A stretch of 64,000 nt of DNA from Candidatus Saccharimonadota bacterium (GTDB lineage Bacteria > Patescibacteriota > Saccharimonadia > Saccharimonadales > Saccharimonadaceae), in the NCBI GenBank assembly GCA_003246575.1, contig QJZZ01000001.1:31978-95977 (forward strand), given 5' to 3'. This document shows positions 36,354 to 58,023 of this stretch, in pieces. A program made the position numbers and the translations under genes. Below the pieces are notes generated by a model, which did no database searches, was not told the origin of the DNA, and saw only the letters and a program-made list of their open reading frames with translations. Position 1 is the first letter of the stretch. Every line of letters begins with the position of its first letter.

Positions 36354-36491
36354 GTGTGTGATTTTTTGAACAGCTTTCGCGGCTCTGGCTCGAGTCAGTA
36401 TAGCATAGTTCACCTCGATAGAAAACACCCTCGGACTAGACATTTTTGCCAAAATATGCAATAATCGAACCATAAACAAGGAGCATACACT

Positions 36492-36884
36492 ATGAAGAAA
36501 ATGATATCAGCAGTTCTCAGCCTCGCCGTCATCGCTACGACGTCTCTTTATTTTGCTCCTGCGACTCATGCCCTTGATGGTGTCCAGAATGGCGCAAACG
36601 CAGCACGTGGCACCGATCAACCGATTGATCTTTTCGGCGCCAACGGCACCTTTTCACTGATTACAAACGTACTCCTCTTCATCATCGGTGCGATTGCAGT
36701 CATCATGATCGTCATCGGTGGCATGCGCTATGTGATCTCTGGAGGTGATTCAAACCAGATCACCGCTGCCAAAAACACGATTCTCTACGCCATCATCGGT
36801 ATCATCGTTGCGATTCTCGCATATGCCGCAGTCAACTTCGTTATCAGTAGCTTTGCTCCTGGCTCAACTGGTACGAACGTCTAG
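36492..36884 (+). CDS. T4SS-type pilin (TrbC/VirB2-like, Gram-positive/CPR 'T4SS_pilin' style)
   Basis: Signal peptide plus two TM helices flanking IGGMRYVISGGDSNQITAAKNTILYAIIG. Paralogous to the 42016-43985 genes. Confidence 0.8.
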   Translation: MKKMISAVLSLAVIATTSLYFAPATHALDGVQNGANAARGTDQPIDLFGANGTFSLITNVLLFIIGAIAVIMIVIGGMRYVISGGDSNQITAAKNTILYAIIGIIVAILAYAAVNFVISSFAPGSTGTNV

Positions 36885-38260
36885 GGTTTTTCGAGTAAGA
36901 CAAACGTCTCATCAGAGGATGGCATGACCTGCCATCCTTTTTCTATAAGCGCAGTTGATAGATCTTCGTCGCGGTACCAAAGGACACAGCGCACATCATA
37001 TCGCGCAAATTCTACATCACGAATCGTCGCATCGTCGCTCACGGATAGATACGTGTCCATATATTTCACACCGTCTTCATTCGTCCAGCTCGGCATACGT
37101 CCATCGATATAGACCGGCACGTCAGGGAGTTGCCAGATCATGTACCCACCAAAGTTGTAGTGATTGAACACGCGCCCAGGACATGGGTGTTCAGCCAAAT
37201 AAGCGACTTGCTCCGGTGCATACGGCGCAGCAGGCGTTGGCGGTAGGGATACGTAGCGTCCTACGGAGTACACAAGCCCCCCGACAAGCACCGAGGCAAG
37301 TAGCGTGAGACCGATACGGATGCCTCGTTCCCGCCACAGTGGCGCAAACGAGAACGTGTACGGAAGTTTCAGCTTCGACAATTCATACAGAGAAAACACG
37401 ATGAAGAGAGGGATATGCCGACCACTCATCAGGCTCATCGCAAACAAAAGAACATCGAGGTGCAACAGCCGCTTCCATTTGAACCCAGCGAACAAAATGA
37501 GTGCGCCCCAGAACCCAGCGTACGTACCAAAGAGCGCATCGACTTGCCACGGTTGCCATTCGCTGACTTGCAAATGAAGGGACGAGTCGGTCATCGTGCG
37601 AATAATCTCTTCGTACATGTGCCAGCCGTACGGATTAATGAACGTCACGGCCACGGCAGCGAGCAGAGCCGCCCAACGCAGCGGACGCTTCCAATGCAGG
37701 CGCAGCGTCTCAAGCCCAATATAGGCGAAGCCGAGCACAAACGATCCATGCATATTTGCCCAGACGAGCATCAATCCGATCATAAGCCAGTACCAACGAC
37801 GTAGGCGCACGATCAATATCAGGAGCGCAGAAAATAATACCGACACTGTGATGGCTCGAACACCCGCGTAGGGAAGGGCGATGACCGCCGCCAGTACGAG
37901 CGCAGAACGATATTTGAGCTTCCAGCCGGCAATCATGAACGCCGCCGTCCACGCCAGTGCGTGGAGAGCCGCCACAAGCCAATAGCCCACTTGATAGACA
38001 TAGCTCGTCAATACATCTGTCAGCCATTCATGATCGATCCACGGAAACGATCTCGCCGTATAGGTGAAAATGTCATGCTCCGGAATACCGCTTGCTCGGA
38101 TATACTCTCCGGCCGCAAGGTGCCAGCCAAAATCCGGATCATACAGAAAAAACCCGCGCACAAAAAATAGCGTAAAAACGATAGCTAGTACCGCCCACCT
38201 TGGCGGACGGATGATCCAAAGTAACGCTTGGTCTCGCCAATTCGCGAGGTGAACTTTCAT
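36881..38260 (-). CDS. polytopic membrane protein (~12 TM), GT-C/oligosaccharyltransferase-like (tentative)
   Basis: I trimmed the track ORF to MKVHLANW at 38260. There are many TM helices with a DPDFGWHLAAGEYI first loop and a ~150-aa C-terminal soluble domain. Confidence 0.6.
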   Translation of the reverse strand: MKVHLANWRDQALLWIIRPPRWAVLAIVFTLFFVRGFFLYDPDFGWHLAAGEYIRASGIPEHDIFTYTARSFPWIDHEWLTDVLTSYVYQVGYWLVAALHALAWTAAFMIAGWKLKYRSALVLAAVIALPYAGVRAITVSVLFSALLILIVRLRRWYWLMIGLMLVWANMHGSFVLGFAYIGLETLRLHWKRPLRWAALLAAVAVTFINPYGWHMYEEIIRTMTDSSLHLQVSEWQPWQVDALFGTYAGFWGALILFAGFKWKRLLHLDVLLFAMSLMSGRHIPLFIVFSLYELSKLKLPYTFSFAPLWRERGIRIGLTLLASVLVGGLVYSVGRYVSLPPTPAAPYAPEQVAYLAEHPCPGRVFNHYNFGGYMIWQLPDVPVYIDGRMPSWTNEDGVKYMDTYLSVSDDATIRDVEFARYDVRCVLWYRDEDLSTALIEKGWQVMPSSDETFVLLEKP

Positions 38261-38381
38261 AGTGACTACTATAACGGGAGATGGGGTGTAGGTACAGACG
38301 TTCATGCTATACTCAGCAGCCACACCCCCGATATTGACTTTTTCACATTTTTGATGTATAGTAAATGAATAAATTGCTGCT

Positions 38382-40268
38382 ATGCACGAAAACAAAAACC
38401 GCCAACACACAGAAGCAAACTATCGCCAAAAGATAGACACGGCGCTCGCGATACCGCTTGATGCCAAGACTATCGATAGCTACGCTGATGCTGCGATCGA
38501 CAACGTGGCAGCAATCCTGAACAGTGCAGTAGAGGGGTATGCGCACCAACCAACCATACACCTCGGCGAGGAGGCATCACAGCGAGAACGCGAAGATGCT
38601 GCTCTGTCATATTTTGGAATTGAAAATGTCGACTACATTATCGAGCATATCGTCAAAAAAGCCGACCAACTTCACGAGCTAGACAGCTTCATCACTCAGA
38701 TACCTCACATAGATACCGTCATCACCCCACCAGATACGGATGAGCAGTACGTAATTCGCCCAGGCAACGAGAAGCCATTCACGCGTGCCGAAGTACTGCC
38801 AAAACTAAAAACACTCCTCTTCATAGCAGAGAATGAGTTTGACATTGATATCCACGAGCCAGACCAGCTTCGGATATCACTCGGTCAAACGCCCGAAAAT
38901 AGTGTCCGCGAACACGGCTACTACACCGTTAAGTTTCCATCGATACATCGCACCGTTCTTGTCTGTGACGAAGCAAAAAATATGACGTTCGTACTCGACT
39001 CGTCGATACTAGATGACGCAAAAATCAACATCGATGCACTTAGCTCGATGACGAAGCAGTCGCTGAAAGAGTACATCGCACAGAACCCATCCAGTGGTCG
39101 ATCCATACCGTACACCGCGAACTACTCGACAGATATTCGACACGCACTTCATGACTTGTCGACCGAAACGCCAGAAACGAGCGAGGCGACCAATTATCTT
39201 GTGCCGCCAGCGCCCGAACATATACTTAGCGTAAAGAAGATTGCAGCAAAAGTTGCCGTCTCGGAACCCGTAGTGCGTAAAGCCATTCACGAACTTGGGA
39301 TTGCCGACAGCGGAGACTATCGATTCGGTCCGTACACTACCAAGGGCTACGACGAAGGCATCATCGACAGAATAGACGCATATTTAGAACAAAATGGCTA
39401 TCAGACAGCACACCCCCCCGAAGGTTCATTGAGCATCAACAAAATTAGCAGCATACTAGGCATCGATTATTACACCGCTTCAAATGCAGCTGCCGAGCTT
39501 GGCCTGCAGGGTCTAGGCAGCCATCGATTTGGAACCAGGATTGCCAAGGCATACAGCGAAGAGGATATGGAGAAAATACGCGACCACCTCAAGGCCGAGT
39601 GGCATCTAGACGAGCCCATACCAGAAGGGTATATGACTATCGTGGGGATTTACAGTGCGTTGAATGCAGGCAGGCGTGCTGTCGAGAGTCAAATTAGCAC
39701 CCTAGGGATCCGCCCCGCAGGAACATACATTATTGGATCAAAAAAGGCCGATGTATACAGCGACACAGACATCGCAAAGATTGCCAGAGGGCTCAAGGAT
39801 TCTGGGTACGCCACCGAAGTCGCACCAGACGGATATTTAAGCGCCAGGGGTATTGCAAAAAAGTTCGGAGTAGCAAACAGTTCTATCCAAAAAATCCTAT
39901 CAGATAACCCTAGTATACAAACATCTGGTTTGTATCGGTTTGGCCCACAATCTACCGATGCCTATGATACTGAAAATGTTGAAGCGGTTCGGAAAATACT
40001 TGATGCTCAAGGGTTCTTTTCGGGACCTGCGCCTGAAGGGTGTTCGTCAATAAGTCAAATTGCGACGCAGCAAAATCTCTCGATCCATCATATTGCAAAA
40101 ACGGTGGAGACGCTCGGTGTTAAACCAGTTGGCAGGTTCCGTTTTGGACATCGAATCGCAGATGCCTACCCCCCGGAATCAGTACAACAGATCGTCGACC
40201 ATGCCACTCAAGCGAGTGCTTCGAGAAAGAGGTCAATCGGCGAAGCCGCGACCAGTCCCTACGCGTAA
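38382..40268 (+). CDS. 628-aa protein: unknown N-domain + five tandem 68-aa winged-HTH-like repeats
   Basis: Promoter-like TTGACT-17-TATAGT lies upstream. The repeat anchors P-E/D-G/H fall at residues 278, 346, 414, 482 and 551. Confidence 0.8.
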   Translation: MHENKNRQHTEANYRQKIDTALAIPLDAKTIDSYADAAIDNVAAILNSAVEGYAHQPTIHLGEEASQREREDAALSYFGIENVDYIIEHIVKKADQLHELDSFITQIPHIDTVITPPDTDEQYVIRPGNEKPFTRAEVLPKLKTLLFIAENEFDIDIHEPDQLRISLGQTPENSVREHGYYTVKFPSIHRTVLVCDEAKNMTFVLDSSILDDAKINIDALSSMTKQSLKEYIAQNPSSGRSIPYTANYSTDIRHALHDLSTETPETSEATNYLVPPAPEHILSVKKIAAKVAVSEPVVRKAIHELGIADSGDYRFGPYTTKGYDEGIIDRIDAYLEQNGYQTAHPPEGSLSINKISSILGIDYYTASNAAAELGLQGLGSHRFGTRIAKAYSEEDMEKIRDHLKAEWHLDEPIPEGYMTIVGIYSALNAGRRAVESQISTLGIRPAGTYIIGSKKADVYSDTDIAKIARGLKDSGYATEVAPDGYLSARGIAKKFGVANSSIQKILSDNPSIQTSGLYRFGPQSTDAYDTENVEAVRKILDAQGFFSGPAPEGCSSISQIATQQNLSIHHIAKTVETLGVKPVGRFRFGHRIADAYPPESVQQIVDHATQASASRKRSIGEAATSPYA

Positions 40269-40320
40269 GGCTCCTCAGCTGCATAACAGGGAGGCGAGAT
40301 TCAATTTTGGCCATCGGGCA

Positions 40321-40360
40321 AAAATAATAAGACGACCGATATAGGTCGTCTTATTATTTT
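40321..40360. terminator. perfect bidirectional terminator hairpin
   Basis: aaaataataagacgacc gatata ggtcgtcttattatttt. Confidence 0.8.
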
Positions 40361-40448
40361 TGGCGGAGAGGGCGAGATTCGAACTCGCGGTGAGTTGCCC
40401 CACGACGGTTTTCAAGACCGTTACCTTAAACCACTCGGTCACCTCTCC
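40361..40448 (-). tRNA. tRNA-Ser (anticodon UGA), CCA encoded
   Basis: Reverse complement: ggagaggtgaccgagtggtttaaggta-acggt-ctTGAaa-accgt-variable arm-gcgag ttcgaat ctcgc-cctctcc-g-cca. Confidence 0.92.
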
Positions 40449-40557
40449 GTATATTGATTGTGAATTGTACCCACTGAGTACCGTGTGAAAACCGTCCGAA
40501 TTGACGTCTTCGTCATCAATTCCACGCCGGTTTGGTCGCTCCTGGCGACGCTTCGCC

Positions 40558-40593
40558 CAAGACCGTTACCTTAAACCACTCGGTCACCTCTCC
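40558..40593 (-). repeat. direct 36-nt copy of the 5' half of tRNA-Ser(UGA)
   Basis: caagaccgttaccttaaaccactcggtcacctctcc is identical to 40413-40448. Confidence 0.88.
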
Positions 40594-40630
40594 ATAATTA
40601 GTGAAGATACCAGGGGAGATTATACCAAAC

Positions 40631-41305
40631 TTACGGACGTACGTCGATAGGCTGACGAGAGGTGACTGCCACCCAGATATCACCAGCTCCTGCGTCCGCC
40701 AGAAGAGATGCGACTGCGCCGACGGTAAACCCAGTTGTATACACATCATCGACGAGAATATACGTAGTGTCCGCGGAGACAGGCCCAGAAAGCTCGTACG
40801 ACTCAGCAGCCTGGCGCTTTCGCTGCGTCCGCGACGCACCGTGCTGCACGTGTTGGACTTTTCGCGCGACGAGGTGCTGCAATGACACACGTCGTCGCCG
40901 TGCAAGTTCGGCCGCTATCTTTTCAGCGTGACCATACCCTCGCTGACGTATGTGGCGAGCGATTGTCGGGATGGGCACGATGATTGAACGTTCAGGAAGG
41001 TGGGGGAGAATCGCATCGAGAAGTTCAGCTTGGGCCCTACAGCCCGAGCGACTGGACCCGAACTTGCTCACAGACACCAGCGCGTCGAGCACACCCGTAT
41101 GTTCACCGACATACCAAGCATGTGAATAGGGCAATCTACACCGCGTACATCCACCCGACAACTGCCGTGGCAGCAAACAGGACGGACAGGCATCGGAGAA
41201 CTCTGAAACGATGTCGTCTTTACAACTTTCGCACAAAATGGCGCCAATTGCTCCGCAAGAGCAACAGTAGTCGGGCAAAATGAGCTCTAGAGGACCGTGT
41301 GGCAT
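40631..41305 (-). CDS. comF: ComF-family phosphoribosyltransferase-like protein
   Basis: An N-terminal Cys-rich zinc-finger-like region (CCSCG..CESC..CPSC..CTRC) plus the PRTase motif YILVDDVYTTG. I trimmed the track ORF to MPHG at 41305. Confidence 0.82.
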   Translation of the reverse strand: MPHGPLELILPDYCCSCGAIGAILCESCKDDIVSEFSDACPSCLLPRQLSGGCTRCRLPYSHAWYVGEHTGVLDALVSVSKFGSSRSGCRAQAELLDAILPHLPERSIIVPIPTIARHIRQRGYGHAEKIAAELARRRRVSLQHLVARKVQHVQHGASRTQRKRQAAESYELSGPVSADTTYILVDDVYTTGFTVGAVASLLADAGAGDIWVAVTSRQPIDVRP

Positions 41306-41414
41306 TGTTATTTTTACGTATACCCCTCTCGCGCGCTTGCGTATCTTTACAATAGTAGTTATAATCTCAAGTAGACTAGACGTCAAACTAGAGCCTAGAA
41401 AAGTGGAGGATATC

Positions 41415-41894
41415 ATGGCCCGTAAACAAAATGACGATTTGCTTATCGAGGACGAGCTGGCAGCAGCATTTCTCGATGACGACACGACTACTCCGGTTGA
41501 CGAACCGGTTGCCCAAGCTCCCGTACAGGAACAAGTGCAAGAAGACTGGCAAGACGAGCAGGATGATTTTCCTGGCCAGCTCGCTGTGGATGTATATGAA
41601 ACCGACGAACAACTCGTCATCAAAGCCCGCACCGCAGGCGTCAACAAGGAAGACCTTGATGTCAGCATTTCTGACGGCATCCTGTCTATTAGCGGCACCC
41701 TCAGTAGCGGCGACGACTCAGACGCAACCAACTGGCACGTTCAGGAATGTTACTGGGGCGAATTCAACCGCACCTTGGCACTTCCTGTTGCTGTTCGCGA
41801 AGAAGAAGTTGGCGCTGTCCTCAAAGACGGTGTCCTGACAATCACCTTCAATAAGGTCAAGCAAGAGCAGGCAAAGAAGATTACTATCCAGTAG
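41415..41894 (+). CDS. Hsp20/alpha-crystallin small heat-shock protein
   Basis: GGAGGA RBS. PGQLAVDVYETDEQLVIKA..GVNKEDLDVSISDGILSISG..FNRTLALP..AVLKDGVLTITF is the ACD pattern. Confidence 0.88.
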   Translation: MARKQNDDLLIEDELAAAFLDDDTTTPVDEPVAQAPVQEQVQEDWQDEQDDFPGQLAVDVYETDEQLVIKARTAGVNKEDLDVSISDGILSISGTLSSGDDSDATNWHVQECYWGEFNRTLALPVAVREEEVGAVLKDGVLTITFNKVKQEQAKKITIQ

Positions 41895-41911
41895 TCGATC
41901 AGCGTTACTCG

Positions 41912-41940
41912 AAATACTCCGCACTTGCGGAGTATTTTTT
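41912..41940 (+). terminator. intrinsic terminator
   Basis: aaatactccgc acttgc ggagtattttttat. Confidence 0.75.
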
Positions 41941-42015
41941 ATGTTGCATTATTTTTGCTCGCTATACAAAGATACCCCGCAAACGCGGGGTATCTATATT
42001 TCCAGAAGGGAAGTG

Positions 42016-42402
42016 TTATGCAGCGAAACTTGTGATAACGAAGTTGACAGCTGCGTATGCAAGGATAGCAACAATGATACCGATGATGGCATAGAGAATC
42101 GTGTTCTTCGCAGCAGTTACGGCGTTTGAGTCACCGCCAGATACAGTGTAGCGAATACCACCGATAACGAGCATGACGACAGCAACGGCACCGATGACAA
42201 AGAGGAGCACGTTAACAACTGTCTGGAAGACACCGCCTTCGCCGGTCAAGTTACTTGCCTGGCCGTTACCCCTGGCAGCATTGACTGAGTCACTAAGGCC
42301 TGGTACTACAGCAAACGAATCAGCTGGCAAGACAGAGCCAACGACGAGCGCAGCTACAGGCAAGGCAGCGATAAGGCCGATAAGTTTTTTGCTAAATTTC
42401 AT
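42016..42402 (-). CDS. T4SS-type pilin
   Basis: Signal peptide plus IGGIRYTVSGGDSNAVTAAKNTILYAIIGIIVAILAYAAVNFVI. The 28-aa TAAKN..NFVI block is identical to the same block in the 36492 product. Confidence 0.82.
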   Translation of the reverse strand: MKFSKKLIGLIAALPVAALVVGSVLPADSFAVVPGLSDSVNAARGNGQASNLTGEGGVFQTVVNVLLFVIGAVAVVMLVIGGIRYTVSGGDSNAVTAAKNTILYAIIGIIVAILAYAAVNFVITSFAA

Positions 42403-42477
42403 TGATGCTATCCCTTCTTAATTTAGTAGCGTCTTTATCTATTATTTATACCAGATAACGGATTGGGCGTAAAGCCC

Positions 42478-42843
42478 CTAGGCAAAGATCATGATGACGA
42501 ACTGGACTATCGCATAGGCGAATATTGCAACAGCGAGTCCGATGACCGCATACATGATCGTGTCTTTGGCTGCCTTGATTTGACCTGGCTCGCCATTTGA
42601 CGTCGTATAACGAATGCCGCCGACAATAATCATGATCACCGACACGCTACCGATCAAATACAATAAAGTATTGATGATGTTCCGGATCAAGCTTGTTGCA
42701 TCATCGGTATTCGCAGCCTTACATACCTGTGCGTCAGGGTTAGCCGCGCAATCATCGAACACATTGATGGCACCGACTGGCGCAACCAACAGGGTAGAAC
42801 CGAGCCCTACGAGGGTTAATAGATATCCTAATCGTTTCAGCAT
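42478..42843 (-). CDS. T4SS-type pilin
   Basis: Signal peptide plus VGGIRYTTSNGEPGQIKAAKDTIMYAVIG between two TM helices. Confidence 0.8.
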   Translation of the reverse strand: MLKRLGYLLTLVGLGSTLLVAPVGAINVFDDCAANPDAQVCKAANTDDATSLIRNIINTLLYLIGSVSVIMIIVGGIRYTTSNGEPGQIKAAKDTIMYAVIGLAVAIFAYAIVQFVIMIFA

Positions 42844-42852
42844 ATAGACTCC

Positions 42853-43593
42853 TTATCCTACGCTTCCTAATACAAATTGAGTGATAATGTATGCCATCAG
42901 TACTACGATGAGCCCAACAACGGCGCCCAGTATGCCCTTACGTGCACGCTGAACCATCTGCGCATCCCCACGAGACGTCACAAAGAAGAAGCCTGCGATG
43001 ACGATGACGAGCACCGCGACGATTGCCGCCCATATATATGCCGCATTCAAGATTGCAGCCAGTGCGCTCTGATCAGCGCCAACCTGTTGGATGTTCACAT
43101 TAGTACCGCCTATCTTCGATGTCGTACTCGTAGCAGTGAAGATCGATGAGACAAGCGTGACTGTCGCAACAGAAAAGATCGATATAATCAATCCCACCAA
43201 GGAATTGGTGATGGTCTTTTTTGCCGACGTCATGAGATTTGAATCACCAGCACTTGTAATGTACTGATAGCCACCCACGATCAACATAACAAGAGCCGCA
43301 TACCCAACGAGCTGCAGGATAATCTCGATAACGTTCATGACGATACGAGTTACGTATCCTTCGATACCGATTTGCGTATTTGGGTCGGTGACTTTACTCG
43401 CAATATCCTTCAGCTCACAGTTCGTCCCCGGTTTTGTCAGGCCCTTGTACCATGCAGGAAATGTGAGAAGCGTATCGCCACAAGTAGGACCTGTTGCATA
43501 CGTGCTTGTCGCTGGCTGCGCGATAGCTACCAGACCAGAGAGGCTGCCAATTATGGCAAGTGACAGTACGAATCGTTTGAATGTACGAATCAT
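42853..43593 (-). CDS. tandem (two-domain) T4SS-type pilin fusion
   Basis: Starts at MIRTFKRF (43593, TAATG overlap with the upstream gene). It contains two pilin modules: VGGYQYITSAGDSNLMTSAKKTI.. and IAGFFFVTSRGDAQMVQRARKGI.. Confidence 0.78.
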   Translation of the reverse strand: MIRTFKRFVLSLAIIGSLSGLVAIAQPATSTYATGPTCGDTLLTFPAWYKGLTKPGTNCELKDIASKVTDPNTQIGIEGYVTRIVMNVIEIILQLVGYAALVMLIVGGYQYITSAGDSNLMTSAKKTITNSLVGLIISIFSVATVTLVSSIFTATSTTSKIGGTNVNIQQVGADQSALAAILNAAYIWAAIVAVLVIVIAGFFFVTSRGDAQMVQRARKGILGAVVGLIVVLMAYIITQFVLGSVG

Positions 43594-43985
43594 TAGTTGA
43601 ACACCCCTCCTGGGACCAGCCACTGTATGGCCGCCCACATCAATGCGTACGCAACAATACCGATTGCCGCATTTCGAATCATCTCCTTTGCCTTCTTCGT
43701 CTGCCCCTCATCTGATTGGGCGGTAGTGTAGAGGAATGCTGCATAGGCAATCATTGCTACAGCAGCAAGACCGACCGCTCCACTCAATATGTTGACGATA
43801 TAGATCACGAGTAACCACGTACTGCTTGATTCAAGGTCCCCAGCATCAGACCCATCACATATACTCTGGGGGAGGACAGTACAGGTAATTCCAGCAGCGT
43901 ACGTAGGCGTTGATACTACCAGCGCCCCGCCAAGTAGTACGGTCAGTACCCCCGATGAGACGATTATTTGTTTTATTAGATTCAT
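43593..43985 (-). CDS. T4SS-type pilin (divergent)
   Basis: Signal peptide and two TM helices flanking AYAAFLYTTAQSDEGQTKKAKEMIRNAAIG. Confidence 0.72.
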   Translation of the reverse strand: MNLIKQIIVSSGVLTVLLGGALVVSTPTYAAGITCTVLPQSICDGSDAGDLESSSTWLLVIYIVNILSGAVGLAAVAMIAYAAFLYTTAQSDEGQTKKAKEMIRNAAIGIVAYALMWAAIQWLVPGGVFN

Positions 43986-44070: not shown

Positions 44071-44099
44071 TTGACTTTTTGGGCCTAAAGTGGTAGAAT
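44071..44099 (+). promoter_or_regulatory. sigma70-type promoter (TTGACT-17-TAGAAT) ~10 nt before the ATG
   Basis: ttgact ttttgggcctaaagtgg tagaat. The ATG at 44109 lies only 9 nt after the -10. Confidence 0.5.
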
Positions 44100-44108
44100 C
44101 AATAGGTA

Positions 44109-47100
44109 ATGTGGGTTATGCGCAAACTACGCGCGCCGAGGGTACACGTTCGGCGCCTTATTTTTTTGACGGTCATCAGCGTATTTATGGCCGCTCTTAC
44201 CTCAGTCGTTTCGTTCTCGAATACGGCTTTTGCTGCTGATGCCGAATGGAGTGGTGTGACGCTTAGCTACGATGGCAACACCTACGCGGCCACCACGGCT
44301 GCACCTGATCGCCCCGGCGAGCCGAACGAATACCAATGGATAAGTAGCCTTTCTTCGCCAGCGACGGCAAATGTTCTCTATTTTGCTGATGACATTGATC
44401 CGACAGATGCAACCACCGCAACTTTTATCAGTTATACATTTACAGCTCCGGGAAGTAACTATTCGTCACCATCAAGCCCAGTGACCGTTACTGTGACTCG
44501 CGATCTCACTGCAACTGCCGCGAGCGGCACCACAGACTGTGGCGTTGGTGCTATTGGTTGGATTGTTTGTCCAGTGTCAAACTGGATCGCCGACGGCGTT
44601 GACTGGATCTATGACACTATCTCAAACTTCTTTGATGTACAAACGATCACCCAGTCGGGGAACGGTATATATGAGCTTTGGCAACTCGTCAGAACCATTG
44701 CAAACGTTGTCTTCATCATCGTATTCCTCATCATCATATTCTCTCAGATAACCGGCGCAGGCTACTCCAACTACAGCATCAAAGATATGATACCGCGCCT
44801 TATTATCGGAGCAATTCTTGTCAACGTCTCGTTCTGGATCTGCGCACTTGCCGTAGATACATCAAATGTACTCGGCCATTCGATTCAAGCCGTTTTCGAT
44901 AATGTACGGCAAAATTACGTCACAACCGTAGATATAGACTGGACAGCCGCGACAGGTGCCGTGCTCGGTGGACTCGGCATTGCAGGTGTTACCGGGTTTG
45001 CCGCAGCAACAGCAGGAAGCAGCATAAGCCTGTCTTTTATCCTCATCTCCGTCTTGATACCTGCAGCCCTGTCTGTGCTTGCCGCGTTCATCGTACTTGC
45101 AGCTCGCCAAGCGATTATCGTTGTGCTCACAGCGATATCGCCACTCGCATTTGTTGCTTTCGTGCTCCCGAACACGCGAAACCTTTTCGATAAGTGGCGC
45201 AGCCTCTTCACCAACATGCTCATCATCTTTCCAGCATTCGCACTTCTATTTGGTGCATCACAAATTGCCGGAGCAGCGATCATCAAGACGGCCGAGAATG
45301 CCGCAGATGAACTTCAACTCGTCTTCGTTTTGATCGGTCTCGCTGTGCAGGTGATTCCACTCGCACTCACGCCACTGCTATCGCGACTCAGCTCAGGCCT
45401 CCTGAGCCAGGTTTCTGGTATGGTCAATAACCGTCAAAAGGGCCTGGCCGACCGCGCACGCAACTGGGCGCAAGACAACGCCGATATGCATAAAGCACGC
45501 AAACTTGGCAATATCGCCAACGACGTACAACGTCGACGCGAGGGCTTGCAAGTTAGTCCGCTACGCGCTCGTGGTATCGGGCGCCTCGGGTACAATATGG
45601 ACCAATCAAAGCGCACCAGGGAAGCCTACAAGCATCAAAGCGAAGAACTTCTGTCAGCTCAACACGAGGAGCGCTGGAATAACCGTATCGCCAATCCTCG
45701 AGAGGCCGGTGCCGTCCGTTCACGTCTCGGTATGACAACGCTCGACCAGCGCACCGCAACCCAGCACGACATGGCCCACCACGTTAAAAAGCAGGCCGAG
45801 ACCCGCAAAGCGGATCATGAGGCACATGCCGACCAACACTGGAACGAGTACCTTGATGGCGCTGCAGGCGCTGAATACAGGCAACTTCGCCACAACACTC
45901 ATGTCACCAAAGGTATCTCAAAGGTATATGACGATGATATGACCAATGCCGATGAGCTAGCACTCAAGGCATTCGTGAACAATACGGCCGCTCACCGTAC
46001 ACGCGCCGTTCGTGCATCCGTCACTGCCAACCAAGCAAAGGCGCATCAAGACAGTATCGACGCGACAGTGCAAGAAACATGGAACTTGCAACAAGAGGGA
46101 GACGTAAATCTCCGCGCCATGCGTCGTGAGACTGCGCTAACCCAAAAGCGTGCCGAGGTAGTAGAGAAGTCTATGGCTGCTGATGATCAGCGCGTATACG
46201 AAACGCTCGCAAACTCCGATCCAGGATATGCCCAAGTCCGTCAACGACGCGTTCAGACAGTCGTCGATAGCAAGATGGGCGAGTTCCAGGGTAGTCAAAT
46301 CGAAACCGAAGGTGCTCGCGCCTACGCGGCACTGTTCGAGGACGGCCAAGCCGGTTCACGTGCCCTTCGTCAGCAGAATGTTCAGATGGAACAGATGAAG
46401 AAAGAAACCGCCACGATAGAGGCAACCCTCCAGAAGCGCGCTGATGCACACTGGGAGCGCGTATCTCAATCTGACGCAAACGTACAAACACTTCGTGTGC
46501 GACAGACCGACGCCGAGGAGTCTGCACGCAGGTCTGCTGCCGAATGGAACAGCCTAGTTGAACGCGTCCGCGACCAAGGTGCCGCCGCAGACGGATTTGT
46601 TGGCACCACCCAAGACGGCAACTCACTTCAGGCGAACTTCAACGCCGCAACCGGCGCAGAACAGAACCTCGAAAACCTCAAGTCAGTTACCCAAAGCCAC
46701 GCAAAGCAACGCTTCGCCGAAACAGAAGCCGGACGTCGCTCTGCCTTGCGCGCACAAGCGGCCAAAGATTCGCTCGAGAGCGTTCAAGCCGATGAAGCTG
46801 CTCGCGCCCAAGAACTCCGCACCAACAGGGATATTGAAAACCTCACAGGCGAGGACCTCGCTATCGCAACAGAGATGCGCAATGCCGATATCGTTAAGCG
46901 CGCCCAAGATCGCCGCAAAGCGAATGCACTTGGTCAAACTGATGCAGAGTACGCAAGTGAAGTGGCAAGTGACACAGGGTACATACCTGGCACAACCGAG
47001 CGCATAGCCACCATCGCCGGCGGTATAGACAATTACGGCGAGGCACGTGCTATCGCGAGCGCCACCCAAGTAGAAGTCGACCAGTTCAACAAGAATGTCG

Positions 47101-47801
47101 CAACAGAAAAGTCTACGATGACCGGCATGCCCGACAGGTCCGACGACCCGAACAGAGAAACCTGGATGAGCATCGTTCAAGACGACAGTCAGTCTGATGA
47201 ACGTCGCGCTGCTGCTGCTGGCAAGATTATGCAGGGTGGAGCGATGGGTACTATCCAAGCCCTTTACAACTATGCAATTAGCGACCCTAACCTCAGCGAG
47301 CGCTCACGTAAGAATATTGAGATGCAGATGGGTGGCGATATCGGCCGAGTGCCATTTGGTATGGGCGCGGGTGCCCGTGCAGCTATGGCGAGTGGTGCGA
47401 TGGACGCCGATACGGCATTCGCCGGGTTTAATGCAGAACAACGCGCAGCAATCGTAATAGCCATGCAGAACCCAGACGCCGTAAGCCAGCAAAACATTGG
47501 CCAGCTCACACACTATGATGCAATGCTGGGCAACCGCCTCAAGGAAAAAATCTCCGCAGAAGCACTGGTCGGTCTCGACCCAGATGATCGCACCCGCATC
47601 ACCGAACTCTTCAGTGACATCCAACATGACGGCGGCCTCGTACTCCCAGCGGAAGCACGTGCGAATATCATTGATGCAATCCGCGGTGCAGCCTCGAACG
47701 AAAACCTTCGCAAGACCGTACCGCCAGATGCCAAGCGCAGCTACAACACGATCCTTGCAGCGCTTGGTGAGACACCTCTCACCCGTGAAGACTGGGCATA
47801 A
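44109..47801 (+). CDS. VirB6/TrbL-like polytopic T4SS channel protein with ~790-aa hydrophilic C-terminal extension
   Basis: Signal/TM, extracytoplasmic domain, CGVGAIGWIVCPV motif, ~6 TM including ISPLAFVAFVLPNTRNLFDKWRSLF, then an Ala/Gln/Arg/Glu-rich tail. Confidence 0.78.
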   Translation: MWVMRKLRAPRVHVRRLIFLTVISVFMAALTSVVSFSNTAFAADAEWSGVTLSYDGNTYAATTAAPDRPGEPNEYQWISSLSSPATANVLYFADDIDPTDATTATFISYTFTAPGSNYSSPSSPVTVTVTRDLTATAASGTTDCGVGAIGWIVCPVSNWIADGVDWIYDTISNFFDVQTITQSGNGIYELWQLVRTIANVVFIIVFLIIIFSQITGAGYSNYSIKDMIPRLIIGAILVNVSFWICALAVDTSNVLGHSIQAVFDNVRQNYVTTVDIDWTAATGAVLGGLGIAGVTGFAAATAGSSISLSFILISVLIPAALSVLAAFIVLAARQAIIVVLTAISPLAFVAFVLPNTRNLFDKWRSLFTNMLIIFPAFALLFGASQIAGAAIIKTAENAADELQLVFVLIGLAVQVIPLALTPLLSRLSSGLLSQVSGMVNNRQKGLADRARNWAQDNADMHKARKLGNIANDVQRRREGLQVSPLRARGIGRLGYNMDQSKRTREAYKHQSEELLSAQHEERWNNRIANPREAGAVRSRLGMTTLDQRTATQHDMAHHVKKQAETRKADHEAHADQHWNEYLDGAAGAEYRQLRHNTHVTKGISKVYDDDMTNADELALKAFVNNTAAHRTRAVRASVTANQAKAHQDSIDATVQETWNLQQEGDVNLRAMRRETALTQKRAEVVEKSMAADDQRVYETLANSDPGYAQVRQRRVQTVVDSKMGEFQGSQIETEGARAYAALFEDGQAGSRALRQQNVQMEQMKKETATIEATLQKRADAHWERVSQSDANVQTLRVRQTDAEESARRSAAEWNSLVERVRDQGAAADGFVGTTQDGNSLQANFNAATGAEQNLENLKSVTQSHAKQRFAETEAGRRSALRAQAAKDSLESVQADEAARAQELRTNRDIENLTGEDLAIATEMRNADIVKRAQDRRKANALGQTDAEYASEVASDTGYIPGTTERIATIAGGIDNYGEARAIASATQVEVDQFNKNVATEKSTMTGMPDRSDDPNRETWMSIVQDDSQSDERRAAAAGKIMQGGAMGTIQALYNYAISDPNLSERSRKNIEMQMGGDIGRVPFGMGAGARAAMASGAMDADTAFAGFNAEQRAAIVIAMQNPDAVSQQNIGQLTHYDAMLGNRLKEKISAEALVGLDPDDRTRITELFSDIQHDGGLVLPAEARANIIDAIRGAASNENLRKTVPPDAKRSYNTILAALGETPLTREDWA

Positions 47802-51825: not shown

Positions 51826-52965
51826 ATGGCAACCTACAAAGTAGCTCAAGATGTCGAAGCTGATGACAAACTGCTCGGACCGTTCGGGTTCCGTCAGTTT
51901 ATTTACCTAATTATTGTCGCAATGGCAGGGTTCATTGCCTATGGTCTATGGCAGATTCTGCCTCCGCTTGCCATCATACCATCGCCAATCATCATCTTCT
52001 TCGGCGCACTTGCGCTGCCGCTTCGCAAAGACCAACCAATGGAAACATACCTGGCTGCGATGGTGTCGTTTTATCTCAAGCCACGCAAACGTCTCTGGAG
52101 CCCGGATGGTGTGGAGAATATCGTCGAAATCATCGCCCCAAAGACCGCCGAGGACAACCTCACAAAGAACTTCAACGGCAATGAAGCCGATCGTCGGTTG
52201 TCGTATCTGGCAGACCTAGCAGACAGTAGGGGATGGGCGATTCGACACGCTGCAGGCCCTACGGCCGGCACATCTATGCTTGGTGATGTCTACATCGAGG
52301 CACAAACCGCAGAAGATGTCCTCGAAGAACATGGTAATCTTGCTCAAAACATTGACTCCCTTATCGGCAGGGCAGATGCAGCGCGACGCCAAGAGCTCAT
52401 AGAGAGTATGCGTCGTCCCCAACCGGCGCCGCAGCCACAGCAGCCGATCACACAGGTATCACCCGTCGCATACGCTACCCCAGCAGCATACGCACAGCCA
52501 TTCCAGGCACCGTCGCCCCAAGCATATACGCCAGTGCTAGAGCCCGCCCCTCAACCACCCCAAGCACCATACATCCCACAGCAACCCGTGCAGCAATACC
52601 CAACACAAGCAGGTCCTGCGCCCGCACCAGACATAGATACATCAAACCTACAGTTCAATCCATATCCATCAATTCATCAGAGCGTCATCCAGCCGCTCGT
52701 TGCTCCTGCTCCTGCTCCTGCTCCTGCGGGGACGGTACCCGCAAATCCAACTGCCACACAACCGGCCGAACCAGTCGTACAGGCACCGGTTCAACCCGAG
52801 CCACTACCGGCACCGAAAACAGAGGAAAGCACTAGCGATACGAGTGTCACACCTGATATAATGAATCTTGCAAATAATTCACAGAACTTGTCGGTGGAGA
52901 CAATCGCGCGTGAGGCAGATCGCCTCAAGGGAGATTCTGACGAAGTAGTTATCTCGCTACGGTAG
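51826..52965 (+). CDS. PrgI/VirB3-like protein with long P/Q-rich C-terminal region
   Basis: VAQDVEADDKLLGPFGFRQFIYLIIVAMAG plus a second TM matches the PrgI-family N-terminus. Confidence 0.7.
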   Translation: MATYKVAQDVEADDKLLGPFGFRQFIYLIIVAMAGFIAYGLWQILPPLAIIPSPIIIFFGALALPLRKDQPMETYLAAMVSFYLKPRKRLWSPDGVENIVEIIAPKTAEDNLTKNFNGNEADRRLSYLADLADSRGWAIRHAAGPTAGTSMLGDVYIEAQTAEDVLEEHGNLAQNIDSLIGRADAARRQELIESMRRPQPAPQPQQPITQVSPVAYATPAAYAQPFQAPSPQAYTPVLEPAPQPPQAPYIPQQPVQQYPTQAGPAPAPDIDTSNLQFNPYPSIHQSVIQPLVAPAPAPAPAGTVPANPTATQPAEPVVQAPVQPEPLPAPKTEESTSDTSVTPDIMNLANNSQNLSVETIAREADRLKGDSDEVVISLR

Positions 52966-52988: not shown

Positions 52989-53825
52989 GTGGGCGTGCCG
53001 CCAAACCAACAGTTACCGCCATCGATGGGCCAACAACCGATGCAGCCAGGTGTTTCTGGTACTGCAGTGCAGGCCGATGCCGAGCAGCAGAAAAAGGCAC
53101 AGACTAACCAAACCACTACTCAAAAAAGCCTCCTCTTCTCCGAGCTACGCGACAGCATGATCATCATGGCAGACGGCTCATACCGTGCAGTTATCGCGTG
53201 TGAGTCAATCAACTTTGACCTTATGAGTAATCGCGAACGCGAAGGAGTTGAGTATAGCTACCAAAACTTCCTGAATTCACTCAACTTTCCGATTCAAATC
53301 CTCGTCCGCTCACAGCGAGTTGACATCACTCCGTATATCGAGAAGCTTCAGAATATTCGCCGCACACAGGACAATATGCTCCTCGGTGTACTTATGGATG
53401 ATTACATTATGTTTATCGCTGATCTCGCAGAGCAGGCAAACATCATGGACAAAAGCTTTTATATCGTCGTGCCATACTCGGCCGGTGGCGAAGGTGGTAA
53501 GATCGTCGAGCAGGGCAAGGGCTTCTTCGGCAAGTTATTTGGCAGCACCGGCCCCGTCGTCACTAAGATCGACCAAGCAAGTTATGAAAAAGCAAAGACC
53601 GAGATCGGCAACCGCGTTAGTGTCGTCACGAGTGGTCTTTTTCAACTTGGCGTCCGGGCTGTTCAGCTCAAAACCAAAGAGCTTGGCGAACTCTATTACA
53701 ATATGTATAATCCCGATACTGCCGTCAACCAGCCGCTCGGTGATTTTAGCCAGATAACGCCTATCTACATCAAAAAAGGGGAGAATGCCCCGGCCGTTGA
53801 CCCATCACAAGGAGGAGTTGTCTAA
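52989..53825 (+). CDS. T4SS-associated protein resembling a stand-alone VirB4 N-terminal domain
   Basis: GTG start (52989 or 52995) after an AAGGAG RBS. MIIMADGSYRAVIACESINFDLMSNREREGVEYSYQNFLNSLNFPIQILV. TAATG overlap with virB4. Confidence 0.6.
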   Translation: MGVPPNQQLPPSMGQQPMQPGVSGTAVQADAEQQKKAQTNQTTTQKSLLFSELRDSMIIMADGSYRAVIACESINFDLMSNREREGVEYSYQNFLNSLNFPIQILVRSQRVDITPYIEKLQNIRRTQDNMLLGVLMDDYIMFIADLAEQANIMDKSFYIVVPYSAGGEGGKIVEQGKGFFGKLFGSTGPVVTKIDQASYEKAKTEIGNRVSVVTSGLFQLGVRAVQLKTKELGELYYNMYNPDTAVNQPLGDFSQITPIYIKKGENAPAVDPSQGGVV

Positions 53826-55654
53826 TGGCCAAAAAACCAGACCCTGTAGATATCGCTGCCGCTCAACGTGCTCGAGAGCAAGCAGAGGTTGAACAGGCAT
53901 TCCTGCGCGGCATGAATACGCTGCGCGACACCATTGCTCCAAGCAGCCTCGAAATCAATGCTTCATATTTCCGCCTCGGCACCAAGTATGGACGCACGCT
54001 ATACATCTATGGCTACCCGCGTGAGATCTACACTGGTTGGCTTTCTGGCCTTATCAATACCGACGAAGTACTCGATATTAGCATGTTCGTTTATCCAGTT
54101 GAGAGTGAAGTTGTTCTCAAGAACCTCCAGAAGAAAGTGACTCAGCTCAATGCAAGCATGGCGATCAACGCCGAGAAGGGACGCACTCGCGATCCGGGCC
54201 TCGAAGCAGCGCTGAATGACGCAGAGGAGCTTCGCGATCAACTACAGGTTGGAGCAGAGCGCTTCTTCCGTTTCGGCATATACGTCACACTGTATGCCGA
54301 TAGTCTAGAAGAGATGGCATTTATCCAGAACAAGATCGAGACGATGTTTGGTCAACAGCTTGTCAAAACAAAAGTCGCCTCCAACCAGCAAGAGCAAGGG
54401 CTCAATAGTACTATCGCTCAAATGACCGACAAGCTCGAAATTCGCCGCAACATGAACACGGGCGCTATCAGTACGAGTTTCCCATTCACCAGCGCCGATC
54501 TTTCAGACGGCAAAGGAATTCTATACGGTATCAATATGCACAATAACGGCCTCGTTATCTTCGACCGCTACAGTCTCGAGAACGCCAACGCGGTTGTCTT
54601 CGCAAAGTCCGGTGCGGGTAAGTCTTTTACCGTCAAACTTGAAGCTTTGCGAAGCATGATGACCGGCGCCGACATCCTTATCATCGACCCAGAGAACGAG
54701 TATCAAAAGCTCTCCGACGCCGTCGGCGGTAGCTACATCCGCCTCAGCCTCAATAGCGATACGCGCATCAATCCATTTGACCTGCCGCGCGTTATCGATA
54801 GCGATGAAGCCGATGATGCATTACGCGCCAACCTCGTCACGCTCCATGGACTCTTCCGCCTGATGCTCGGCGGTAGTCAAATCGCTTCGAATGGACAAAT
54901 GATGGCAGCTATCACACCCGCAGAAGAAGCCGACCTCGACCAGGCGCTTATCGACACCTATGCACGTGTCGGCATTACCAGCGACCCGTTGACACACAAC
55001 TCAGAGCCACCAACTATAGCAGACCTCTACGATACACTCCTACATATGGGCGGCACGGGGCCACAGCTCGCACAACGTTTGCGCAAATTCACAACAGGCA
55101 CCTTTGCCGGCATTTTCTCGCAACAATCAAATATCGATATCAATAACCATATGGTTGTGTTTAATATCCGCGACCTCGAGGACGAACTTCGCCCGATCGC
55201 AATGTATATCGTCCTGAGTCATATCTGGAATATCACTCGCACCATACAACAAAAACGTATGCTTATAGTTGACGAGGCGTGGCAACTCATGAAGTACGAC
55301 GACTCAGCGAACTTCCTCTTCAGCCTTGCCAAGCGTGCTCGCAAATACCACCTCGGGCTCACAACCATCACCCAAGATGTCGAAGACTTCATGGGCAGCA
55401 AGATGGGGCGCGCTATTGTTGCCAACAGTTCTATGCAACTACTCCTGAAACAGTCATCGAGTGCTGTCGATGTACTCGCGGATGTTTTCAAATTAACCGA
55501 AGAGGAGAAAAAGCGCCTCTCAAACTTCCCGGTAGGGCAAGGACTCTTCTTCGCCGGTCAGAACCATGTCCATATGCAAATCATTGCCAGTCAAACCGAA
55601 GAGAAGCTTATCACTACAAATCCGAATGCCGCGCCCCCTGGAGCAAGTGCGTAA
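53825..55654 (+). CDS. virB4: VirB4-family T4SS ATPase (PrgJ/TrsE-like)
   Basis: IAPSSLEINASYFRLGTKYGRTLYIYGYPREI N-terminal pattern, Walker A FAKSGAGKSF and Walker B MLIVDEAWQLM. Confidence 0.9.
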   Translation: MAKKPDPVDIAAAQRAREQAEVEQAFLRGMNTLRDTIAPSSLEINASYFRLGTKYGRTLYIYGYPREIYTGWLSGLINTDEVLDISMFVYPVESEVVLKNLQKKVTQLNASMAINAEKGRTRDPGLEAALNDAEELRDQLQVGAERFFRFGIYVTLYADSLEEMAFIQNKIETMFGQQLVKTKVASNQQEQGLNSTIAQMTDKLEIRRNMNTGAISTSFPFTSADLSDGKGILYGINMHNNGLVIFDRYSLENANAVVFAKSGAGKSFTVKLEALRSMMTGADILIIDPENEYQKLSDAVGGSYIRLSLNSDTRINPFDLPRVIDSDEADDALRANLVTLHGLFRLMLGGSQIASNGQMMAAITPAEEADLDQALIDTYARVGITSDPLTHNSEPPTIADLYDTLLHMGGTGPQLAQRLRKFTTGTFAGIFSQQSNIDINNHMVVFNIRDLEDELRPIAMYIVLSHIWNITRTIQQKRMLIVDEAWQLMKYDDSANFLFSLAKRARKYHLGLTTITQDVEDFMGSKMGRAIVANSSMQLLLKQSSSAVDVLADVFKLTEEEKKRLSNFPVGQGLFFAGQNHVHMQIIASQTEEKLITTNPNAAPPGASA

Positions 55655-55677: not shown

Positions 55678-58023
55678 ATGGCGCTCTCATACAAGGACGA
55701 CACTGAAGCCGATGAGCGGCTCAGCCCAGCCAATCGCCTCAAGGCTGCCGAGGAAGGTTCGCACGACCGCATCGACGGATACGACCGATCAAGTGACGGT
55801 CTAGATGCTCGTGAGTCTGAATTCAATGCATCCGATACTGCCTCGGCTGCAGAAAATCGATCAGAAAACCCAAACTGGAAGCTCGATGTTGGTAACAAAA
55901 AAATAAAGGTTAAGGGTGGAAGGTTAAAGAAATTTGGCCCTGCCGGCATCATCGGCGGATCTCTTATCGGCGTACTGGGAACGATGATGTCTTTCGCGCC
56001 AACAACCTTGCTAGTGAATCTCAAGGAAAACTTCGTCAATAATTTTGACCAGCAATCTATCATATCTTCAAATCGATCGAATAAAATCATAGCTAAGCGA
56101 TTATCCGGTGAAGCGACTACTGGAGTGTGTACAAGCAAGGTAAGCCTTCTTTGCCGCTATACTCGTCCGTCAAATTATCAAATCAGTCAATTTGACAGAG
56201 CTGGCATAAAAGCCCTTGACGCAAACGGCAATGTAATAGAGAAACGACTATGGCCAAACGCTAGGCCGGCAGCATACGACATACCCGGCGTTGGCAAGGT
56301 ATCGGCCACAGATCTGAATGACGTACTCAGAAACAATCCCCAGGTTCGCAATGCTTTCAAAAGGGCATACAACCCCCGATACGTAAACTGGGTAGACGAT
56401 GTTGCCAGAAAATTATTCAGTAGTTTAGGTGTCGCGAAGGCTATTGACGGAGCACTGTCAGCGGCAGCGAACAAAAAAGCCGCTCAAGCCGCCGTAGACG
56501 GCACTCTTGCCGTAGCAGACAAAGCAGCAGGAAACAGGGCCCTGCGCACTAGCCTATCGGAGCTCATAGAGCGTTTCGCAAAAAAGATGGCAACAAGGTC
56601 GGTAAAAATCGGAAAGCAAGATGCCGTGCTTTTATCCGTTGCCGTTGGGTGTATAGCAACAAAAGTCCCAGGGCTTGTATCGACGGCGATCAAGGCATAC
56701 AGGCTACGAGCCCTTGCAAATGTAGCGTTCAAATTCCTGACAGTAGCGGATGCAATCAAGGCAGGCGAAGCAACTCCCGAAGAAGTTGAGAATGCAGGCA
56801 TCCTCTTAACAGATGTAGTGAATGGAAAGTCGGCTATGGACGGAGCAATTATGTACGGGATTATGGGAGCAAGTAATGTTGGCGCCGCCATGACTCCTGT
56901 AGCGCAAAAATATATCCCCGGCAAAAGCGCTGCATTATGGGATACTGTTAGTCAATATACCGACAACAAAGTCACGAACTCGATTTGTAACATAGCGATG
57001 AACCCGTATGCATCAGCTGCAATCACCGCCTTCAAGTTGGCGAAATACGCCGCCGTTGGGGCAGGTACACTCGGTATCGGTGATGTAGTTCTCTTAGTGG
57101 GAGATATTGCCTCCACTGCCGTGTTCTCGTTACCGGGAGTGGAGTCCGCGATTGCGGATACGGCGACATCTGTGGCGTCCGTGGCATTGAGTGTAATACC
57201 AGACGGAACTCTTGACTCTATATTCAACCTTGCGCTCGGCGATATGACGGAAGGGGTCGCAGGGGAAGACCTATCAGCGGTTATTACAAATGGAGCCGAC
57301 AGCTCAATGTCTCAAGCAGCCGGAATGGGTGGCAGTGTCGCGCTCACTCCGAGCCAAAAAATTGCCTATGACAATGAAATAACTCGACCAACTCAACTCG
57401 CATGGGCAGCCGAGGATCGCGCTAGCCATAGTCCATTCGACGCCTCCAACCCAAACACCTTCCTTGGTTCAATAGTGACTAGACTAATGCCATACTACGG
57501 GAGCCTTAGTAGTATTAGCGGCGTCATGAGCACATTTTTCTCAATATCATCATCCTCGCTTGCAAATTTCCTACAACCGACTAGCTACGCGGCCGACACA
57601 GAAGAGACATGGCAACAATGCACTCAAGACATTTCAGTCGCAACATCGCCAGCAGCGACAGACCCTCTATGTGCTGTGCAATATGGTATACCAGCAGAAT
57701 TTACAAATATAGACCCAGAGACTGTCGTTCAAGATCTCTATGACAGTAATAATATTGATGAAGACGGAGATGTGATATCTGGCAGTGACCTAGAAACTTG
57801 GATGTCCGAGTGTAATACAGGCACATCGGAATCAGCGAGTAATTGTGTTATCCCTAACGCCGACGACAGTAGCTATATAGATAGACTTCGCATAGCTGAA
57901 TTTGCACTCTACCAGATTGATAAGCGCGTTATCGATGGAATGGATAATGTCGACGGAACGACAGATTCTAGCTCCACAAGCGCATTTTATTCATCCATAA
58001 CTGACGCATTGGCGGTCTACTAA
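55678..58023 (+). CDS. 781-aa membrane-anchored orphan of the T4SS locus
   Basis: Acidic N-terminus, one TM (GPAGIIGGSLIGVLGTMMSF), Ala-rich helical and hydrophobic middle, Cys-containing C-domain. A TATAAT lies 11 nt before the ATG. Confidence 0.7.
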   Translation: MALSYKDDTEADERLSPANRLKAAEEGSHDRIDGYDRSSDGLDARESEFNASDTASAAENRSENPNWKLDVGNKKIKVKGGRLKKFGPAGIIGGSLIGVLGTMMSFAPTTLLVNLKENFVNNFDQQSIISSNRSNKIIAKRLSGEATTGVCTSKVSLLCRYTRPSNYQISQFDRAGIKALDANGNVIEKRLWPNARPAAYDIPGVGKVSATDLNDVLRNNPQVRNAFKRAYNPRYVNWVDDVARKLFSSLGVAKAIDGALSAAANKKAAQAAVDGTLAVADKAAGNRALRTSLSELIERFAKKMATRSVKIGKQDAVLLSVAVGCIATKVPGLVSTAIKAYRLRALANVAFKFLTVADAIKAGEATPEEVENAGILLTDVVNGKSAMDGAIMYGIMGASNVGAAMTPVAQKYIPGKSAALWDTVSQYTDNKVTNSICNIAMNPYASAAITAFKLAKYAAVGAGTLGIGDVVLLVGDIASTAVFSLPGVESAIADTATSVASVALSVIPDGTLDSIFNLALGDMTEGVAGEDLSAVITNGADSSMSQAAGMGGSVALTPSQKIAYDNEITRPTQLAWAAEDRASHSPFDASNPNTFLGSIVTRLMPYYGSLSSISGVMSTFFSISSSSLANFLQPTSYAADTEETWQQCTQDISVATSPAATDPLCAVQYGIPAEFTNIDPETVVQDLYDSNNIDEDGDVISGSDLETWMSECNTGTSESASNCVIPNADDSSYIDRLRIAEFALYQIDKRVIDGMDNVDGTTDSSSTSAFYSSITDALAVY

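Follow-up and report, generated by a model that had tools for sequence, protein, structure and literature searches.

Arrays of small VirB2-like genes are known from many Patescibacteria: 441 arrays of 2 to 11 genes have been described, abundant in Saccharimonadia, and the survey proposes that they serve adaptation to host strains (Quinonero-Coronel et al. 2025, PMC12102498). In Southlakia epibionticum ML1, the array genes SEML1_0014 to SEML1_0019 are pilins scored GD/ES/ES by transposon-insertion sequencing (Tn-seq), with 0 to 4 insertions against 11 to 15 in the input (Wang et al. 2023, PMC10633639 Tables S1/S2). Here we describe the corresponding genes of a Candidatus Saccharimonadota bacterium in a 64,000-nucleotide stretch of DNA (contig QJZZ01000001.1, positions 31,978 to 95,977 of the forward strand; hereafter "the window," in whose numbering all positions are given). 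Five genes encode six pilin modules: a minus-strand array, E-D-C-B, in which D carries two modules (D1 and D2), and a distal paralogue, A, on the opposite strand. We consider it probable that the five genes make up the chromosomal set of VirB2-like subunits for the monoderm-type (MPF-FATA-like) type IV secretion system (T4SS) that nearly all Saccharibacteria carry. Pilin arrays, including the distal copy in ML1, are already published, and the window adds no new kind of system.

The locus of ML1 and that of the window are alike in several respects. In both, the proteins match PF18895 with or without PF04956, the array is divergent from a VirB6-like T4SS gene, and Hsp20, ComF, tRNA-Ser and a GT-C-like membrane protein precede an opposite-strand pilin. 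The ML1 protein in the VirB6 position, SEML1_0013, lies beside the first array gene and has a FoldSeek match to TrbL/VirB6; SEML1_0019, the positional counterpart of B, received zero insertions; and SEML1_0023, an STT3/PglB/AglB-like GT-C protein by structure, is non-essential (PMC10633639). The distal opposite-strand "pilin," SEML1_0024, is scored NE/NE/NE, with 22 to 23 insertions (PMC10633639 Tables S1/S2). ML1 has six separate array genes, whereas the window has four genes with five modules, since it lacks a further paralogue, C', and D1 is joined to D2 in one gene. The window also has an extra 628-aa gene with helix-turn-helix (HTH) repeats between the tRNA and the GT-C-like gene. The essentiality of the array and the dispensability of the distal copy are known only from Tn-seq in ML1.

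In the Patescibacteria survey, arrays consist of tandem, divergent VirB2-like genes near virB4, as in the window, and were detected with the same hidden Markov models (HMMs); identity within an array reaches at most 54% there, compared with 60% overall and 79% over the core for A and B here (PMC12102498). The passages of that survey consulted here make no mention of an orthogroup structure, which argues for fixed, distinct roles of the paralogues. A 2025 review covers the same system and raises a possible pilus in these monoderms (PMC12857230).

VirB2 of the Ti plasmid, TrbC of RP4 and TraA of F share with the window proteins a signal peptide, two hydrophobic helices and a short basic loop. 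Both sets are encoded with VirB3, VirB4 and VirB6 homologues, and C passes the TrbC/VirB2 profile threshold. The classical conjugative pilins are shorter, about 70 to 75 aa when mature compared with a predicted length of about 96 to 103 aa in the window. Their systems, which belong to diderm bacteria, usually have only one copy, and VirB2, TrbC and TraA are known to undergo head-to-tail cyclisation or N-acetylation. The Mbov_0395 family (NF045849) of Mycoplasma integrative and conjugative elements (ICEs) is likewise a small two-helix protein of a monoderm MPF-FATA-type system. Mycoplasma ICEs are not known to have more than one pilin-like copy, and their system transfers DNA.

Gene content and family assignment

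The open reading frame (ORF) listing contains five genes with six two-helix modules, the number given in the first-pass annotation of this DNA, and these six modules are the only PF18895 matches in the whole 931-kb genome (98.6% complete). In profile HMM searches, all five proteins exceed the curated Pfam cut-off of PF18895 (T4SS_pilin; 26.6 bits). The distal paralogue A (36492-36884, plus strand, 130 aa) scores 40.1 bits and is VirB2-like. Its closest paralogue, B, is the last gene of the array (42016-42402, minus strand, 128 aa; 40.7 bits). C (42478-42843, minus strand, 121 aa; 49.1 bits) has a pair of cysteines in its exposed N-terminal region and additionally scores 30.5 bits on PF04956 (TrbC/VirB2), above the cut-off of 27.9 bits. 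D, a fused di-pilin, is listed at 42853-43638 on the minus strand and matches PF18895 in two stretches (51.4 bits). Module D1 (43138-43593) has a signal peptide and the exposed motif C..FPAWY.GL..C, and D2 (42853-43137), which has no signal peptide itself, is encoded separately from D1 in most relatives. E, the first gene of the array (43593-43985, minus strand, 130 aa; 31.8 bits), has a cysteine pair and ends in LVPGG(V/I)F. The start of D is likely the ATG at 43593 (MIRTFKRF...), which gives a protein of 246 aa and a 1-nt overlap with the stop of E; an AGGAGG Shine-Dalgarno sequence lies 5' of this ATG, and clear Shine-Dalgarno sequences are also present for A, B and C.

All five proteins match the NCBIfam model NF045849 (Mycoplasma ICE Mbov_0395 pilin-like conjugal transfer protein), but only D exceeds its curated cut-off, the other four falling below it. 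Among the control genomes, PF18895 also has a match in Haloferax volcanii. Given these two results, VirB2-like subunits may be ancestral or native to monoderm and archaeal MPF-FATA systems rather than borrowed from diderms.

Each module is a hydrophobic helix-loop-helix hairpin of ~70 residues. In the hydropathy profiles, a signal-like stretch at the N-terminus is followed by two long hydrophobic stretches in each module, D2 lacking the signal peptide. An alignment of 42 sequences was used for an AlphaFold2 model of A, which places the hairpin helices at residues 53-82 and 87-121 with a pLDDT of about 96. The predicted signal peptide of A ends at Ala27, and this -1 position is at least 90% conserved. 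The Pfam matches of the window include no TraF-like maturation peptidase. The loop motif that the first-pass annotation assigned to all six modules fits A, B, C and D1 and is degenerate in D2 (AGFFFVTSRGDAQMVQRARKGI) and E (AAFLYTTAQSDEGQTKKAKEMI).

The array E-D1D2-C-B is transcribed divergently from a block of VirB6-, VirB3-, VirB4- and VirB1-like genes on the plus strand. The first T4SS core gene (44109-47801) encodes a multi-transmembrane protein of 1230 aa that has no Pfam match and that we call VirB6/TrbL-like by synteny with SEML1_0013; it is kept beside E in relatives. Further downstream are PrgI (VirB3-like; 51826-52965; PF12666, 2.8e-10), a VirB4-type ATPase (53825-55654; PF19044, PF12846 and PF01935) and a VirB1/PrgK-like cell-wall hydrolase (58023-59351) with a lysozyme domain (PF18013, 3.1e-20) and a CHAP match (PF05257) of 23.1 bits, below the cut-off of 26. 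PrgI, the ATPase and the lysozyme-type hydrolase lie within 16 kb of the pilins, a linkage kept in relatives, and the ATPase is 83 to 88% identical to proteins of many metagenome-assembled genomes of Candidatus Saccharibacteria or Saccharimonadales. Judged by its gene content, the T4SS is of the monoderm type. The profile matches and this neighbourhood bear out the earlier assignment to a pilin family.

Several points weigh against reading these genes as the pilin set of a T4SS. A pilus built from these proteins has never been observed in a Patescibacterium. A Foldseek search of the AlphaFold2 model of A against the PDB returned generic helical hairpins only, with a best E value of 1.7. Searches of PDB sequences with C and with a 42-sequence profile found no pilin, and tblastn of C against 72,556 plasmids found no match. 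The ML1 Tn-seq essentiality of the upstream array genes could be partly a polar effect on the last gene, and the orthology of A and SEML1_0024 is drawn from synteny, length and the position of the Pfam match rather than from alignment. Finally, signal-peptide cleavage, membrane topology and the division into major and minor subunits are predictions. The Foldseek result counts neither for nor against pilin identity, because the helical hairpin fold is too generic.

Some of these points would fit an alternative in which the proteins are VirB2 homologues that build no pilus and instead form membrane parts of a secretion channel, a short stalk spanning the cell wall, or a membrane component unrelated to the T4SS. 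Monoderm conjugative T4SSs are generally without pili (PMC10633639; PMC12857230), and the absence of a structural match to solved pilins in the Foldseek search is in line with this idea, as is the greater length of the mature window proteins compared with classical pilins. On the other hand, membership in the profile families together with tight linkage to VirB4 and VirB6 is the same evidence that is used elsewhere to recognise pilins, and the extreme conservation of both helices fits many homotypic, polymer-like packing contacts, without proving a polymer. We regard a pilus-free role as rather unlikely, while taking it seriously. A holin or phage protein, the kind of non-pilin identity that the first-pass annotation had named as its refutation, can be set aside: the five proteins hit no PHROGs family at an E value of 0.01 or less and no holin family in Pfam.

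Distribution and orthology of the paralogues

To place the subunit set in its lineage, we compared the window with 41 genomes of the same order. PF18895 modules are present in 38 of these genomes, with 6 to 18 per genome and usually 7. The first-pass annotation had described an expanded repertoire, but this is no expansion: genomes of the order normally have six to eight modules, and the window has one module fewer than its closest relatives. The same layout recurs in ten genus- or family-level relatives and in about 50 further loci, including Nanosynbacter: a VirB6-like gene on the plus strand; E, D1, D2, C, C' and B, all on the minus strand; Hsp20 (plus); ComF (minus); and the distal A on the strand opposite to the array. 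Compared with this standard layout, the window lacks C' and has D1 and D2 fused in frame. C' occupies the interval between B and C in most Saccharibacteria, as it does elsewhere in the genus; here that gap (42403-42477) is only 75 bp, and C' is cleanly absent. A and B are 1.2 to 2 kb apart in close relatives, and the 5 kb between them in the window is due to the insertion of additional genes in the interval from ComF to A.

A maximum-likelihood tree of 66 modules resolves the paralogues into groups that cross genome boundaries. E and D1 each form one group with support of 100/100, D2 forms one group (96/82) and C another (79/91). A and B join in one clade, within which the A modules of the genus are monophyletic (100/99). 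The two types also differ in their ends: A-type proteins have an S/T/G-rich tail past the second helix (PG..GG-T(N/D)V in the genus and ...YGASTR elsewhere; PGSTGTNV in the window), which B-type proteins lack. The tree indicates that the paralogues are ancient, individually conserved orthogroups without lineage-specific expansion.

In the assembled sequence of the window, the D1-D2 junction is in frame, with no stop. The same fusion is found in three relatives from different genera or families (G017, G034 and G011; loci L009 7165-7881, L171 3682-4335 and L172 439-1113), while most relatives have two abutting genes. The topology permits a tandem fusion, since a module is predicted to have its two ends on the outer side of the membrane, and the recurrence of the fusion suggests that D1 and D2 may be neighbours in the assembled structure. 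In the closest relative, G006, E and D1 are read as one 300-aa ORF (L002 5257-6159; L091 11678-12580). This is probably a frameshift or assembly indel near the end of E rather than a true fusion, because the conserved LVPGGVF of E is replaced there by out-of-frame sequence. Across the ten loci L001 to L010, all E orthologues terminate in LVPGG(V/I/L)F and have the cysteine pair C..LP.S.C, and the D1 orthologues have (F/I)P(A/P)WY.GL between two cysteines. Such conserved exposed motifs suggest that E and D1 may engage in specific interactions.

Antigenic or host-surface variation has been proposed for the VirB2 paralogues of Bartonella and Anaplasma, and the first-pass annotation raised antigenic or receptor variation for the genes studied here. 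Under this explanation, the paralogues would be interchangeable pilin variants, of which one or a few are expressed at a time. The exposed N-terminal regions do differ strongly between paralogues (pN 0.51 for A and B), core identities are only 20 to 39% for D1, D2 and E, and the exposed region of C is poorly conserved across its orthologues (identity 0.20, compared with 0.59 for that of A). Variation is also suggested for Patescibacteria in the survey (PMC12102498). Yet each paralogue is closer to its orthologue in another genus than to its neighbours, the number and order of the paralogues are fixed across the order with no lineage-specific bursts, and neither silent cassettes nor recombination repeats were seen. 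The good conservation of the exposed region of A, the joint essentiality of all six array genes in ML1 and the repeated fusion of D1 and D2, which implies co-assembly, likewise speak against interchangeable variants. These conserved, syntenic orthogroups do not bear out the earlier suggestion, and we judge antigenic variation to be very improbable. Positive selection on the exposed regions is a question on which dN/dS is uninformative, since even comparisons inside the genus are close to saturation at synonymous sites (pS 0.45 to 0.89).

The first-pass annotation had named a heteropolymeric fibre as the other possibility, and we infer that this is the better reading of the two. The orthogroups, the recurrent D1-D2 fusion and a tailed A whose ML1 counterpart is dispensable together favour what may be a fixed multi-subunit assembly over antigenic variation. 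In such an assembly, A, B, C, D and E would use the Sec pathway for export and be cut after a small-x-Ala site, leaving both ends outside the cell and the basic loop inside. The VirB4/VirB6 machinery would then pull the subunits from the membrane and stack them into one fixed multi-subunit fibre, or a short conduit, that points to the host cell. Most of the structure would consist of the highly conserved B (and C), while the divergent, cysteine-containing E, D1 and D2 would have specialised places as minor, base or tip subunits. D1 would sit next to D2, which would explain their repeated fusion. A would be a variant of B in an accessory role, preceded by a promoter-like site of its own and bearing an exposed tail rich in S, T and G; it would be dispensable under laboratory co-culture.

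A bolder version can be put forward, in which the seven paralogues are obligate, non-interchangeable parts of one heteromeric fibre or conduit, the first in a monoderm, with D1 and D2 as direct neighbours, which would account for four independent in-frame fusions, and A as a conditional substitute for B whose tail is possibly glycosylated by the GT-C/oligosaccharyltransferase-like protein. We offer this version tentatively and find it doubtful as a whole.

The A/B pair

A and B share an identical 28-aa block, TAAKNTILYAIIGIIVAILAYAAVNFVI. The two copies of this block differ by 11 nucleotides in 11 codons, all synonymous, and our count reproduces that of the first-pass annotation. By the Nei-Gojobori method, the block has 21.7 synonymous and 62.3 non-synonymous sites (S and N) with 11 synonymous and 0 non-synonymous differences (sd and nd), which gives proportions of differing sites of 0.51 (pS) and 0 (pN), a dS of about 0.85, a dN of 0 and an omega of 0. 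With half of the synonymous sites changed and no change at ~62 non-synonymous sites, the block is far from the neutral expectation. The 60-residue hairpin core gives pS 0.50, pN 0.087, dS 0.82 and omega 0.11. In the N-terminal part pN rises to 0.51 and pS is near saturation, so that dS and omega are not estimable there. The earlier description of the two copies as identical at the protein level holds for the block but not for the whole proteins, which are 60% identical overall and 79% identical over the hairpin core. Likewise, the N-terminal halves are diverged, as had been stated, but still have NAARG..Q...L.G..G.F in common.

The block is nearly as well kept in other genomes of the order. 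Mean identity to the window block is 23.8 of 28 residues in A orthologues and 24.0 of 28 in B orthologues, and over the second transmembrane helix (TM2) A and B of different genomes are 0.81 identical, compared with 0.82 to 0.86 inside each orthogroup. The shared block is thus one instance of a nearly invariant helix, which argues for purifying selection rather than recent conversion. On this evidence we agree with the first-pass annotation that A and B are an old, separately maintained pair under purifying selection and not the product of a recent duplication or conversion.

Gene conversion between A and B could in principle have produced the identical block without independent selection on the two genes. 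The cores of A and B are slightly more alike within a genome than between genomes (identity 0.79 compared with 0.73, and 0.728 compared with 0.704 across 17 non-redundant genomes; p about 1.5e-4), and core pS is lower within than between genomes in nine of ten genomes. The A and B of one relative, G010, group with each other in the tree (100/92). However, the 11 synonymous differences over 28 codons in the window (pS 0.51) mean that any exchange here was ancient; across genomes, the block of A resembles that of B almost as closely as copies inside one orthogroup resemble each other; and shared codon usage could explain the lower within-genome pS. We therefore see little chance that conversion accounts for the block. 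The small within-genome excess leaves room for rare, old exchange or co-variation, with nothing recent apparent in the window.

The A gene of G010 (L008 5999-6403 and 8005-8424 for the pair) clusters with B rather than with its orthologues, yet keeps an A-type tail, and gene conversion over the hairpin core is possible in that lineage. For a conversion from B to A over the loop and TM2, the diagnostic residues leave the polarity ambiguous, because the state "T...YAI(I/V)G" is common to other genera of the same family.

Neighbouring genes and intergenic signals

A sigma-70-like promoter match (36437-36465, plus strand; TAGACA-17-AATAAT with an extended -10), a match to the consensus only, lies 27 nt 5' of A. 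Another near-consensus match (44071-44099, plus strand; TTGACT-17-TAGAAT with TG) precedes the VirB6-like gene. Promoter-type matches in the region are not more numerous than expected from shuffled sequence. Between the 3' ends of the convergent Hsp20 and B genes, a pattern match marks a hairpin with a 12-bp stem (41911-41938), which is likely a terminator closing the array operon.

A multi-transmembrane protein of 509 aa (36881-38410, minus strand), the GT-C-like protein of the window, is encoded tail to tail with A, with a 4-nt overlap, and has no Pfam or NCBIfam match. The tail-to-tail pairing with A is also seen in L099, L102, L104, L107, L109 and ML1. A homologue of the 509-aa protein is found in only 3 of the 41 related genomes, in two of them apart from A; we rejected a firm link between A and this gene, the association being patchy. 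Glycosylation of the tail of A by the GT-C-like enzyme is conceivable from the S/T/G-rich composition of that tail, but unsupported.

A further protein, of 628 aa (38382-40268, plus strand), has repeated weak matches to HTH-type Pfam families and is encoded between tRNA-Ser(UGA) and the GT-C-like gene. Since ML1 lacks this gene in the matching interval, the segment between ComF and A looks like a variable insertion spot.

Implications for Saccharibacteria

Few machines have been shown to be indispensable to Saccharibacteria in their epibiotic life, and the T4SS with its pilin array is one of them. The comparison presented here sharpens the picture in three ways: the paralogues are ancient, individually conserved orthogroups, two of them fuse repeatedly, and A resembles the presumed bulk subunit with a tail added and has a syntenic counterpart that is dispensable in ML1. 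This pattern speaks more for a structure of several defined subunits than for a surface antigen that varies, and it gives targets for structural and genetic studies in the cultivable strains TM7x and ML1.

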